From the sequence record MZ501052: 64,000 nucleotides of DNA. One strand, written 5' to 3'. The notes under the pieces were generated by a model. It saw only the letters and a program-made list of their open reading frames with translations, was not told where the DNA came from and did no database searches. The position numbers and the translations under genes were made by a program. Of this stretch, positions 7,495-21,130 are shown piece by piece (position 1 is the first letter of the stretch; each line of letters begins with the position of its first letter). Source of the stretch: Escherichia phage AugustSocin.

Positions 7495-8884
<1,390 letters not shown>

Positions 8885-13164: not shown

Positions 13165-15429
13165 TCATAATTTACAGGATGAACAATCTTCAGCTTTTGG
13201 AGTTTCTATTTCATAATCATCAGTACCAGAACCGTCACGGGTATTATGATAATAGAAATTTTTTCCGCCAAAATACCAGAAATACAAAAGGTCATCAATC
13301 ATTATTGACATTGGAACCTTGCCTTTAGGGAAGATTTGGGGGTCATAGTATGTATTCGCCGAAGCTGATTGACAAACCCATTTCAGCATAATAGCTACCT
13401 GCGTAAGATAAGGTTTATTACCTTTCTTAGCTAATTTCCATGTATAATCATAAAGGTCTATGTTATGCTCAATATTGGGCACGACTTGATTAAAGGAGCC
13501 CTCTTTTGATTCTTTAACAGAGACTGGTCCACGTGGAGGCTCGATACCGTTTGTACTGTTAGAAACTTGGGAAGATGACTCACATGGCATAAGTGCTGAT
13601 AATGTGCTATTACGGATGCCAAAGAGCTTAAGGTCTTCCCGCAGCGACGACCAGTCACAAACGTATTTTGGAGCTGCGATTTGGTCAATCTTTTTATTGT
13701 ACCAGTCGATAGGTAATTCGCCTCGAGACCAACGAGTGTCTGAATAATATTCACAAGGTCCTTTTTCTTTGGCGAGTTTAATGGATGCTTTAATGAGTCC
13801 ATACTGTAATCTCTCAAATAGTTCATGTGTTAAATCGTTAGCATCTTCATAAGAAGCAAAGTTACTTGCCAACCAAGCTGCATAGTTAGTAACACCTACA
13901 CCGAGGTTACGACGCTTTTTAGCTTTTTCTGCTTCAGGAACTGGATATCCTTGGTAATCCAAAAGATTATCAAGAGCACGAACCTGGACTTCTGCCAATT
14001 CATTAATTTTATCTTGGTCTTGCCAGTCAAAATTATCCAGTACGAATGCAGAGAGAGTACACAATCCAATTTCAGCATCAGGACTATTCACATCATTTGT
14101 TGGAATAGCAATTTCACAGCACAAGTTACTCTGACGAATAGGTGCCTTTTCACGAATAAACGGAGTATAGTTATTCGTATTATCAATGAACTGTACATAA
14201 ATCCTTGCTGTTCCTGAGCGTTCAGTCATGAGCAATTCAAATAGTTCACGAGCTTTAATACGCTTTTTACGAATATTAGGGTCTTTTTCTGCGGCTTCAT
14301 ACAATTCACGGAAACGGTCTTGGTCTTTAAAATAAGAATAATAAAGCTCTCCGCCCATTTCATGGGGACTGAACAAAGTAATGTAATCGTTCTTTCCAAA
14401 ACGTTCCATCATCAAATCATTCAGTTGAACACCATAATCCATATGACGAATGCGGTTTTCTTCTACGCCTTTGTTATTTTTCAAAACAAGAAGATTTTCA
14501 ACTTCCAAATGCCAAATAGGATAATAAGCAGTAGCAGCGCCGCCACGAATTCCACCCTGTGAGCATGATTTAACAGCAGTCTGAAAATGTTTCCAAAAAG
14601 GAATAACACCAGTATGGCGTACTTCACCCATGCCAATCTTAGAACCTTCAGCACGAATCATACCAACGTTAATACCAATTCCAGCGCGTTTAGAGATATA
14701 TTCAACAATTGAAGCGGAAGCCTTATTGATAGACTTTAATGAATCACCTGCCTCAATAACAACGCATGAACTAAACTGCCGGGTTGGAGTACGGCAACCA
14801 GCCATAATAGGAGTTGGCAATGAAATCTGTCGAGTAGATACTGCTTCATAAAAACGGATAACGTGTTTTAATCTATCAACAGGTTCATCTTGATGCAATG
14901 CCATTCCAATAGTCATAAATGCAAACTGTGGAGTTTCATAAATTTGACCAGTGGTTTTATCTTTAACTAGATATTTTTCTTTTAATTGCATCGCCCCGGA
15001 ATAAGTAAATTCCATATCCCGCTCGTGCTTAATTTTTGATTCTAAAAATGTAATTTCTTCTGCAGAATATTTTGACAACAATTCAGGGTCGTATTTACCT
15101 TCATTTACACAGTAAGAAATATGGTCAATAAATGAACGTGGTTCATACTGCCCATAAACATGCTTACGAAGAGCAAACATTAAACAGCGTGCAGCTACAT
15201 ATTGATAATCAGGTTCTTCAACCGAAATAGAATTCGCAGCGGCCTTAATGACAATAGTCTGAATATCATCAGTTGTCATTCCATCACGGAGATAAGATTT
15301 AATATTTTCATATAATTCATAAGGATCTACTGATGTTCCTTCAGCTGCCCAAGATAAAACTTTAATAATTTTTTGTGGGTCAAAGCTCTGAGAAACACCA
15401 CTACTTTTGATAACATTAATTAATTGCAT
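13165..15429 (-). CDS. nrdA: ribonucleotide reductase large subunit
   Basis: 754-aa ORF, same length as T4 NrdA, adjacent to nrdB. Confidence 0.97.
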   Translation of the reverse strand: MQLINVIKSSGVSQSFDPQKIIKVLSWAAEGTSVDPYELYENIKSYLRDGMTTDDIQTIVIKAAANSISVEEPDYQYVAARCLMFALRKHVYGQYEPRSFIDHISYCVNEGKYDPELLSKYSAEEITFLESKIKHERDMEFTYSGAMQLKEKYLVKDKTTGQIYETPQFAFMTIGMALHQDEPVDRLKHVIRFYEAVSTRQISLPTPIMAGCRTPTRQFSSCVVIEAGDSLKSINKASASIVEYISKRAGIGINVGMIRAEGSKIGMGEVRHTGVIPFWKHFQTAVKSCSQGGIRGGAATAYYPIWHLEVENLLVLKNNKGVEENRIRHMDYGVQLNDLMMERFGKNDYITLFSPHEMGGELYYSYFKDQDRFRELYEAAEKDPNIRKKRIKARELFELLMTERSGTARIYVQFIDNTNNYTPFIREKAPIRQSNLCCEIAIPTNDVNSPDAEIGLCTLSAFVLDNFDWQDQDKINELAEVQVRALDNLLDYQGYPVPEAEKAKKRRNLGVGVTNYAAWLASNFASYEDANDLTHELFERLQYGLIKASIKLAKEKGPCEYYSDTRWSRGELPIDWYNKKIDQIAAPKYVCDWSSLREDLKLFGIRNSTLSALMPCESSSQVSNSTNGIEPPRGPVSVKESKEGSFNQVVPNIEHNIDLYDYTWKLAKKGNKPYLTQVAIMLKWVCQSASANTYYDPQIFPKGKVPMSIMIDDLLYFWYFGGKNFYYHNTRDGSGTDDYEIETPKAEDCSSCKL

Positions 15430-15983: not shown

Positions 15984-16844
15984 TTACACCGCCATCTTTC
16001 CTTTAATAGGAGGATGTGATTCATAGTTGTTAAGAACAAAATTATGAGGCTTTGCAAATTGACTCAACCAAAATACCTGCGATTCTGTGTCCCATTCATC
16101 AAATTCATCTGGAAATTTTAATTGTAATTCGCATAAATCCATAGGTTCACGACATAAAATTTCTTTACATTGTTCTACGTGATTCATATAGATATGAGTA
16201 TTACCACCAGAAAATATCAAATCTCCCGGAATAAGATTACACATCTTAGCTACAATATGAACTAACGTAGCATATGATGCAATATTAAATGGAAGACCGA
16301 GGAAAACATCTACCGAACGTTGATACCACTGAAGGTCAAGGTATCCATTACGCACATTAAACTGATAGAACATATGACAAGGCGGTAATGCCATATATTT
16401 AAGTTCAGCTGGATTCCACGCAGAAACAATTTGACGCCTATCATTTGGCAGTTTTTTAATACGATCAACAACTTCTATAATTTGGTCTACACCGCCAAAA
16501 TCACGCCACTGTTTTCCATAAATTGGACCAAGTTCACCGCTATGGTATCCTAAATCTTTTGCTTGATTTTCGTAATTTTCATCCCAGACTGTTTTGCCTT
16601 GAATTAATGAATCATGTTGAATTAATCGTAAATCATTGACATTTGTGCTTCCTGATAAAAACCAAAGCAGCTCAGCAATGCAAGCTTTCCAGGCGAGCTT
16701 CTTAGTTGTTACCGCAGGAAAACCTTTAGTTAAATCCCAGCGCAATTTAGTACCGAACAAAGCAATTGTTCCTGTGCCTGTTCGGTCATCGGTTTCATAG
16801 CCATTTTCAAAAATGTCTTTAATTAAATCTTGGTATTGTTTCAT
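15984..16844 (-). CDS. td: thymidylate synthase, uninterrupted
   Basis: 286-aa contiguous ORF with active-site motif [11 protein letters not shown]; no group I intron. Confidence 0.97.
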
Positions 16845-16889
16845 TTAGTACCTTATATAAATTATAATACATTTTATGAAGCTAAATAA

Positions 16890-17249
16890 TCAATACGGTT
16901 TAGCATCAAATTTTCTCTCAATTTCAGGTGTGAAATATAATTCTTTGCCACGTTTGGAAAAGCGACCAATAATATGATAATTATTCTCATCAAACGTGAT
17001 ATTACCAATATCCATAGCTTTCAACCAAATATCGATATTTCTATCCAGCTTTATGTCAAAATTCCAATACGGAGAACTATTACCGAAAATACTGCAAGCG
17101 GATTCAGTGAAACAACTACTATAAATCTTGTCTTTAGGAACTACTAATTGATAGACGCCTTTAATAAACTGAGGACCTTGCCATTTTGGCTGTTTCGCGT
17201 CTTTTTCTAATAGAATAGGGTAATAATTAAAATTCATATTTTCCGCCAC
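16890..17249 (-). CDS. hypothetical protein inserted between frd and td
   Basis: 119-aa ORF with start 9 nt after frd stop. Confidence 0.6.
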   Translation of the reverse strand: MAENMNFNYYPILLEKDAKQPKWQGPQFIKGVYQLVVPKDKIYSSCFTESACSIFGNSSPYWNFDIKLDRNIDIWLKAMDIGNITFDENNYHIIGRFSKRGKELYFTPEIERKFDAKPY

Positions 17250-17257
17250 GCGTTATT

Positions 17258-18084
<827 letters not shown>

Positions 18085-18095
18085 ATTATCTCCTA

Positions 18096-18428
18096 TTAAA
18101 AAGGATCAGGAACATATCCGCTAGCTTTAATCATTTTAATTAACGTTAACATTCCTTTGTTAACTGCTCGTGAGATTTCATCAAAAACTTCATCACTAAA
18201 AAGTTCTAACACGCCCTTCTGAACTTTTAATTTACAGCCAACAATTTCTTCATCGCCTATAGTAAATTCATTACCACCAATTCCACCGAAAAACTTAATT
18301 ACACCAGTTAACTGTCTTCCACGAGAATATGGGTCGTGTGATAAAGTAATATGAGTCACCCCGGGTACAGTTTTAAATTGGCAGCGAATATTTACTTGTG
18401 AAATTCCAGTTACATGAATGTCAGACAT
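18096..18428 (-). CDS. hypothetical protein (frd.2 position)
   Basis: 110-aa ORF. Confidence 0.55.
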   Translation of the reverse strand: MSDIHVTGISQVNIRCQFKTVPGVTHITLSHDPYSRGRQLTGVIKFFGGIGGNEFTIGDEEIVGCKLKVQKGVLELFSDEVFDEISRAVNKGMLTLIKMIKASGYVPDPF

Positions 18429-20495: not shown

Positions 20496-21130
20496 TCATA
20501 GCTGGCATAATTCACAATACTCTGGGTCTTCGAGAGGTATCCAACCTGAGTTGAAATACTTTACCATCGATTTAGCAGTTGTATCAGTTATATTTATATT
20601 ACCTTTAACTCTTCGCCATCCAGGAGTTTTACCGTACAGATTAGAGGATAATAATAACACATAATTCTCGTAAGCAATATGAGATAATTTCCAAGACTCT
20701 ATATTAGCTCGTGATGTTTTCCAAGGTCTAAAATCGTCACGGTTCATATAATTAGCCAATCTCATATGCTCTCTAACTTCCGGGTCTTTGGCTGGATGAG
20801 TTTCACCACTCACACCAAATCCGCCGCCAGCATATACCAGATTAAAATAGTCTGGATTATCTCTGGCATTTACTTCAAGTTGGTATTTTCGCTCTGCTTC
20901 AATAACATCCAAATCATCATCAATTTGAATTATTTTAACGCTCGGTTTTTGAAGCATTACCGCATTTAAAAATCTTTTTTGTTTGCACGAACTCCAGTAT
21001 TCCTTTCCGGAAGAGTCATATATTATTCCATTCTCAAATGAGCAATTTAATTTACTGCCGATATAGTATAGTACGGCGGAGTCTTATTTTTGACACGGTC
21101 TTCAAATGTAAACCAATATACTATATTCAT
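20496..21130 (-). pseudogene. possible frameshifted gene at the segG position (GIY-YIG-like remnant?) between genes 32 and 59
   Basis: 27-codon ORF (MNIVYWFTFEDRVKNKTPPYY...) coupled to gene 59 stop; the 153-aa track ORF frame is open a further 43 codons upstream with no start codon and contains LYYIGSKLN. Confidence 0.45.

Follow-up and report, generated by a model that had tools for sequence, protein, structure and literature searches.

The genes for dihydrofolate reductase (frd) and thymidylate synthase (td) of phage T4 overlap by 4 nt, with nothing between them, whereas in Escherichia phage AugustSocin (sequence record MZ501052) an open reading frame (ORF) occupies the same junction. The first-pass annotation of a 64,000-nt stretch of this genome, referred to here as the window, placed the ORF at 16890..17249, where it is indeed present in the ORF list on the minus strand, and described it as inserted into a junction prone to mobile insertions. 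Its absence from T4 is borne out: the T4 junction was inspected for the same ORF, which is not there. The questions that this locus raises are whether the ORF is a gene, whether it was gained here or lost in T4, and what its product might do.

The locus and its reading frame

The minus strand of the window carries a T4-type nucleotide-metabolism block composed of nrdA (13165-15429), nrdA.1, nrdA.2, td, the junction ORF, frd, two small ORFs, frd.1, frd.2, frd.3 and gene 32, and from position 8000 to 32000 the window is 94-97% identical to several Tequatrovirus genomes. The downstream neighbour of the junction ORF, td (15984..16844, minus strand), is intronless and encodes its 286 aa in one piece. 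The upstream neighbour, frd (17258..17839, minus strand), encodes a protein 98% identical to T4 Frd. The coding sequence between them (16890..17237, minus strand) specifies 115 aa followed by a TGA stop; it belongs to PHROG 1928 and corresponds to RB32ORF229c.

The ORF was first given as 119 codons, which is correct for the GTG at 17249 from which it is listed, but the real start is almost certainly the ATG at 17237, which leaves 115 codons and a gap of 20 nt after the frd stop. The choice follows from the relatives, since homologues of 115-116 aa are annotated from ATG and the GTG falls out of frame in related phages. The 20 non-coding nt that separate the frd stop from the ATG (17238..17257, minus strand) include the in-frame GTG and show a length polymorphism of 1 nt (GGAAAATATG versus GGAAATATG); a 1-nt deletion in three related loci (L001, L012 and L013) puts the GTG out of frame, and a start at this codon was rejected. 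The distance from the frd stop to the GTG, given originally as 9 nt, measures 8 nt (17250-17257).

A real gene under strong constraint

Eight codon-aligned comparisons with relatives give dN/dS values of 0.00-0.07 for the junction ORF, which indicates strongly purifying selection and matches the constraint on frd and td. Compared with T2, there are 15 synonymous differences and no non-synonymous ones, and the comparison with the Mosigvirus phage PTK gives 31 synonymous and nine non-synonymous differences (dN/dS 0.04). The junction ORF is a real gene under strong purifying selection. AT-rich phage DNA yields many long chance ORFs, such as one of 159 aa antisense to gene 32, which would speak for a spurious ORF in a non-coding spacer, but the ratios of 31:9 and 15:0 rule out this reading, and the conservation of homologues across genera and the confident predicted fold also count against it, so that its probability is vanishingly small.

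Distribution of the family and its paralogues

By tblastn, the junction ORF is found in 554 phage records at 554 places, once per record, with T2 and T6 among them; 362 of these records match at 90% identity or more and 192 at below 60%. In T2 it stands beside an intronless td, as in the window. The gene occupies this junction in the majority of Tequatrovirus genomes and in many of Mosigvirus. In Mosigvirus, Jiaodavirus, Kanagawavirus, Moonvirus, Roskildevirus and metagenomic T4-like phages, homologues with 26-66% identity likewise lie between frd and td. Examples with the homologue between the dihydrofolate reductase (DHFR) and thymidylate synthase (TS) genes are Klebsiella phage Mineola (Jiaodavirus), Kosakonia phage 305 and Edwardsiella phage PEi26 (Kanagawavirus), Erwinia phage FBB1 (Roskildevirus) and Citrobacter phage CF1 (Moonvirus), as well as 14 IMG/VR contigs and several metagenomic contigs. 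In every homologue-bearing locus with both flanks, the homologue lies directly between DHFR and TS on the same strand, and no exception was found; one short contig (L010) ends before td, and there the homologue directly follows DHFR.

An exhaustive HMMER profile search of 1.84 billion representative proteins returned 22 matches, which comprise about 20 genuine clusters, all of 95-116 aa, and the family is confined to T4-like phages. The two long matches (P0021 and P0023) were rejected as artefacts of repeats; one of them is a piece of a reverse transcriptase. The divergence of the junction ORF roughly tracks that of gp32 and Td: its identity to outgroups is 63-66% where that of gp32 is about 61%, and 40% where gp32 is at 53%; most loci farther out are at 26-36%.

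Most phages with these homologues of 26-66% identity have two tandem junction ORFs, A and B, and B is a paralogue of A (hhalign probability 98.5%, E 1.5e-15; hmmsearch E 1e-8 to 1e-19). The B proteins from other genera also match PHROG 1928. In distant genera the order is frd, A, B, td, chained by overlapping stops and starts, while Tequatrovirus and Jiaodavirus have copy A only. In the second paralogue of the other genera, about 20 residues (PTIxEYKRNP..Y) are inserted after the conserved Trp, some of these junctions contain a third ORF of 68-69 aa before td, and Roskildevirus has the long and short paralogues in the opposite order. The stretches concerned are 2817-3176 in L005, 2817-3173 in L006, 2787-3134 in L008, 4332-4673 and 4670-4879 in L009, and 2056-2511 in L007. 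Elsewhere in the 64-kb window there is no paralogue of the junction ORF, and a word-indexed search with a wider A+B profile recovered just further proteins of 113-148 aa without domains.

Previous records of the gene

The junction gene is not new, having been deposited hundreds of times already as a hypothetical protein. The identical 115-aa protein is in GenBank under several accessions (e.g., ACP30875.1) and on 341 contigs, always as "hypothetical protein", and the gene is labelled RB32ORF229c in T6 and RB32. The RB32 GenBank record, which is of 2006 era, carries the note "flanked by 9 bp repeat". Residues 8-115 match positions 2-125 of the 126 positions of the PHROG 1928 profile (E 9.5e-36), a family to which no function is attached.

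Annotation of the gene is uneven. The RefSeq record of T2 (NC_054931, L033 1208-1620) leaves it unannotated, and screens built on that annotation would miss it. In two genomes of the BASEL collection, MZ501106 (L001 2491-2838) and MZ501047, it is labelled "putative homing endonuclease", and in some records "putative dihydrofolate reductase", MW749001 being among the records with annotation problems; both labels are wrong. Literature searches with locus names, protein accessions, the frd-td junction and PHROG 1928 returned no paper on the junction gene and no screen in which it was hit. As a discovery the locus counts for little; it is of modest use for annotation and as an orphan family, with a confident, unmatched predicted fold and a fixed place between two well-studied enzymes.

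Gain here or loss in T4

A 9-bp direct repeat, TAAATGAAA, bounds the segment that T4 lacks. On the coding strand the frd end reads ...GTGTA[TAAATGAAA]TAACGCG... and the td start reads ...GGTAC[TAAATGAAA]CAATACC..., so that copy 1 (17256..17264, minus strand) covers the frd stop codon and copy 2 (16839..16847, minus strand) covers the td start codon. When the 417 bp between the two copies (16848..17264, minus strand, with end points ambiguous within the repeat) are taken out, what remains is the T4 junction: the flanks align without a gap and agree at 115 of 118 bases. The junction of RB69 (Mosigvirus) has the same fused sequence. A shared 9-mer is expected by chance with a probability of about 0.006 in two random 40-nt zones of the same composition; the Lys-stop codons of frd and the Met-Lys codons of td, however, dictate six of the nine.

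The T4-type junction was found in 32 records, many of them T4 stocks, and the RB69-type junction in 16, as compared with the 362 records that match the ORF at 90% identity or more and about 50 with the PTK-type allele, present in phages classified as Mosigvirus such as PTK. Presence of the ORF is polymorphic in both Tequatrovirus and Mosigvirus, with the empty site in the minority in each. Given the homologues at the same junction across genera, the rarity of the empty state and the repeat-bounded geometry of the 417-bp segment, parsimony makes it most likely that presence is ancestral and that T4 and RB69 arose from this state by deletion. T4-type and RB69-type phages would have lost the gene when the 9-bp repeats recombined or slipped against each other, and a 417-bp deletion of this kind would merge the frd stop with the td start into ATGA without damage to either enzyme. 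As T4 and RB69 grow without the junction gene, it would be dispensable, at least in laboratory hosts. That the ORF is a real gene, ancestral at this site and lost in the T4 and RB69 types, is considered highly probable.

The junction is not the only point of the frd block at which T4, the reference genome, represents a reduced state. It also lacks the two genes that lie between frd and frd.1 in the window: one for an 81-aa protein (17839-18084, minus strand; phrog_3183, no Pfam match), which other Tequatrovirus loci have, and one for a 110-aa DUF7247 protein (18096-18428, minus strand), which is common to outgroups and distant genera. With T4 reduced at this locus, absence from T4 is a poor sign of novelty or mobility.

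The same observations can be read in the opposite direction, as a mobile cassette in which a 417-bp segment consisting of the ORF and a promoter-like spacer was inserted into a T4/RB69-type ATGA junction, duplicated 9 bp and then spread. The perfect direct repeat flanking the segment does look like a target-site duplication, presence or absence is polymorphic in two genera, and the "empty-site" sequences of T4 and RB69 are identical. Such a repeat is equally expected from microhomology-mediated deletion, however, and its weight is reduced by the six bases that the flanking codons dictate. The segment encodes no transposase, integrase or endonuclease, and no terminal inverted repeats were seen; it is present in a single copy per genome and always at the frd-td site (all 554 places); and in at least five other genera homologues with 26-66% identity sit at the same junction, where they overlap frd and td without a flanking repeat. 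The minority status of the empty site in both genera stands against insertion too, and the rough agreement of ORF identity with gp32 and Td fits vertical descent. More favourable to a mobile segment is that the ORF is better kept between genera than td, at 88% nucleotide identity between Tequatrovirus and PTK-type Mosigvirus as compared with only 75% for td, which shows lateral exchange of a block of frd plus ORF. It is also possible that an overlap-type ancestor re-acquired the gene, since RB69, the closest outgroup examined in detail, shares the T4 overlap. Taken together, a mobile cassette appears improbable. The claim that the ORF was inserted as a mobile element found no support, with the family at the same junction in all homologue-bearing loci examined, once per genome, and the T4-type overlap rare; nor was evidence found that the frd-td junction is a "known hotspot for mobile insertions". 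The comparison of the junction across T4-like genomes agrees with the first-pass annotation in that T4 lacks the ORF and departs from it in polarity, which is most likely loss in T4 and not gain here.

The PTK locus (L027, Mosigvirus, 606-2434) is a mosaic that switches at the ORF/td boundary from a Tequatrovirus-like frd and ORF (86-88% nucleotide identity) to an RB69-like td (96%). In this phage the frd stop is destroyed by a 2-nt insertion, which makes frd 12 codons longer and lets it overlap the ORF start, and the spacer between the ORF and td is just 13 nt.

A free-standing homing endonuclease, as annotated in the BASEL genomes MZ501106 and MZ501047, would likewise be at home in a T-even genome, where many free-standing seg and mob genes lie between conserved genes. 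Neither the protein nor 23 family members has a Pfam match to GIY-YIG, HNH, LAGLIDADG or PD-(D/E)XK domains, though, and the 33 family members share no invariant Asp, Glu, His or Cys. The 115 aa are too few for a nuclease plus a DNA-binding domain, and the predicted fold matches no nuclease. PHROG 1928 has no function attached to it, whereas the true SegG fragment in the window matches "homing endonuclease" PHROGs at E 7.6e-90. An endonuclease is accordingly very unlikely.

The SegG fragment comes from a segG homologue between gene 32 and gene 59 (20496-21130, minus strand) with a frameshift near 21065, after ...KNKTPPYY. Its N-terminal GIY-YIG part is in another frame. What is left is an ORF of 153 aa that aligns only with positions 58-210 of a SegG PHROG with 210 positions in all; the break may reflect a pseudogene or an error in sequencing. 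The mobile element that does occur nearby in relatives is the td intron with I-TevI, which is absent from the AugustSocin window: td of T4 and T6 consists of two exons with a group I intron containing I-TevI, and td of T2 is intronless, like that of the window. A link between the intron and the junction ORF was rejected, as T6 has both, T2 the ORF alone, T4 the intron alone and RB69 neither.

The spacer between the ORF and td

The 45 nt from the ORF stop to the td start (16845..16889, minus strand) contain a promoter-like element at 16861-16886, TTTAGCTTCA ... TATAAT/TAATTT, and the ribosome-binding site of td (AAGG). In nine Tequatrovirus loci whose ORFs differ by 2-4%, this spacer has no substitutions, and its one change is the loss of 1 nt in T6. 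A promoter scan gives a sigma-70-like match at 16893..16864, and the number of sites in the region is no more than chance expects. A promoter role for the spacer is put forward as a suggestion from the sequence.

In the RNA of this region (16830-16900, minus strand), the ORF end (GUAUUG) and UUAUUUAG can pair with the td start region (CUAAAUGAA, CAAUAC). The resulting weak hairpin would mask the td start codon; with a predicted energy of -10.7 kcal/mol and a z-score of -1.9, the evidence for it is marginal. Rfam gave only sub-threshold chance matches on the frd-td junction (Yar_1 and cow-rumen-1).

The product and its possible function

The family is characterized by the motifs LLExDxxQKKW, HGIY, AMxxGNIxFD and IIGRFxKxGxxxxFxP, of which QKKW, HGIY, GNIxFD and IIGRFxKxG are kept down to 26% identity. 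All 33 A and B sequences aligned, that of the window protein among them, share Gln16, Trp19, Gly27, Gly91, Lys95 and Gly97; Tyr29 and Phe93 are near-invariant, and the window protein carries the family signature Q..W / G.Y / G[RV]F.K.G....F. No Asp, Glu, His or Cys is invariant or near-invariant in this 33-sequence alignment. The AlphaFold model, built on a 23-sequence alignment, is confident (pLDDT 92, pTM 0.84) and predicts a strand (6-12), a long loop with the QKKW motif, a strand (27-34), short strands, a helix (68-76), a strand (80-82) and a long hairpin (86-104). Most of the invariant residues map to the β1-β2 loop, β2 and the β4-β5 hairpin of the predicted structure. The protein has a pI of 8.5, and most family members are mildly basic, with a pI of 8-9.

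That the ORF has no recognisable motif, as the first-pass annotation stated, is confirmed by Pfam (the protein matches nothing with E as high as 10, and 23 family members nothing relevant), NCBIfam (no match) and PADLOC (four family members without a match, even with E as high as 1), the last being a library of defence, not anti-defence, proteins. The best hit of a sequence profile search of the PDB, a TagH segment at E 0.044, was judged to be chance. Structural matches are low-scoring and enriched in OB-folds, among them HIN, Teb1, S1, RPA, SSB and RuvA domain I, and BFVD yielded solely uncharacterised proteins of T4-like phages.

The gene would share a minus-strand transcript with frd and td, and translation from the ATG at 17237 would yield a 115-aa, single-domain small β-barrel with one helix and an OB-like strand order. 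The conserved Gln, Trp, Tyr, Phe and Lys residues in loop and hairpin regions would correspond to the binding face of OB-like barrels. With conservation concentrated there and no invariant Asp, Glu, His or Cys, a non-catalytic binder is to be expected and not an enzyme or nuclease. Candidate ligands are nucleic acid, a nucleotide or folate-like molecule, or the Frd and Td proteins themselves, and the product may form a homo-oligomer where there is one copy and an A/B pair where there are two. The fixed place between DHFR and TS and the translational coupling in distant genera suggest action with both enzymes or on their products. As gene order is stable across the T4-like core, synteny with frd and td is weak evidence for a functional link, and a non-catalytic binder linked to thymidylate synthesis is offered only tentatively. 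More speculative is a family of unrecognised DHFR/TS partners, β-barrels with a fold not yet in the PDB, which would tune thymidylate synthesis by binding folate or nucleotide, the enzymes or their mRNA; this is rather unlikely, and if true, T4 and RB69 would be natural knock-outs.

The main rival is that the junction protein is an accessory protein of the host-takeover or anti-defence type, without a tie to thymidylate synthesis and simply housed in the operon, as is the case for many small early T-even proteins. This would suit its small size, its dispensability as seen from T4 and RB69, its copy number of one or two, the limitation of the family to T4-like phages and its rate of evolution, which is faster than that of Td and about that of Frd. 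It is less easily reconciled with the very strong purifying selection without diversifying change within Tequatrovirus, or with a position and translational coupling to frd and td that hold at deep divergence. The lack of a PADLOC match says little here, given the content of that library. The literature searches found no screen hitting the gene, and the T2-specific activators listed in the bNACHT11 preprint are other proteins, not the junction gene product; the T2 record cited there does not annotate the junction ORF. A host-takeover or anti-defence role is thus a doubtful, though serious, candidate. A functional test would be cheap, because the natural deletion mutants T4 and RB69 exist.

As a whole, the best explanation, which is probably correct, is that T-even-type phages inherit the junction ORF vertically, as an ordinary accessory gene. 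It would be the first member of PHROG 1928, a small family at home in the frd-td junction.

Comparison with known systems

The closest known counterpart is PHROG 1928/RB32ORF229c of T2, T6, RB14, RB32, wV7 and several hundred T4-like genomes, which is the same gene without any difference: RB32ORF229c has the identical protein, the same position and the same 9-bp flanking repeat. With the free-standing endonuclease genes of the seg and mob type the junction gene shares its small size, its polymorphic presence or absence between conserved genes, and variant junctions that recombination has carried from phage to phage. It differs from them in having no nuclease motif or conserved catalytic residues, one fixed site and deep vertical conservation.

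At the protein level, the predicted model resembles OB-fold domains such as those of SSB, RPA, S1, HIN and telomere-end proteins in size, in the order of strands, helix and long β-hairpin and in its mildly basic charge. Conserved aromatic and Lys/Arg residues in the β1-β2 loop, β2 and the last hairpin add to the likeness, although the structural matches are weak.

The junction itself compares directly with the frd-td ATGA overlap of T4, which couples the two genes in translation and whose flanking genes share 98% protein identity with those of the window. In distant genera the junction genes are linked to frd and td by stop/start overlaps of the same kind as that between T4 frd and td. In the window, by contrast with T4, 417 bp separate the two genes, and the ORF is followed by a 45-nt spacer with a promoter-like element and a ribosome-binding site of td's own, so that the coupling of td to frd is broken in AugustSocin.
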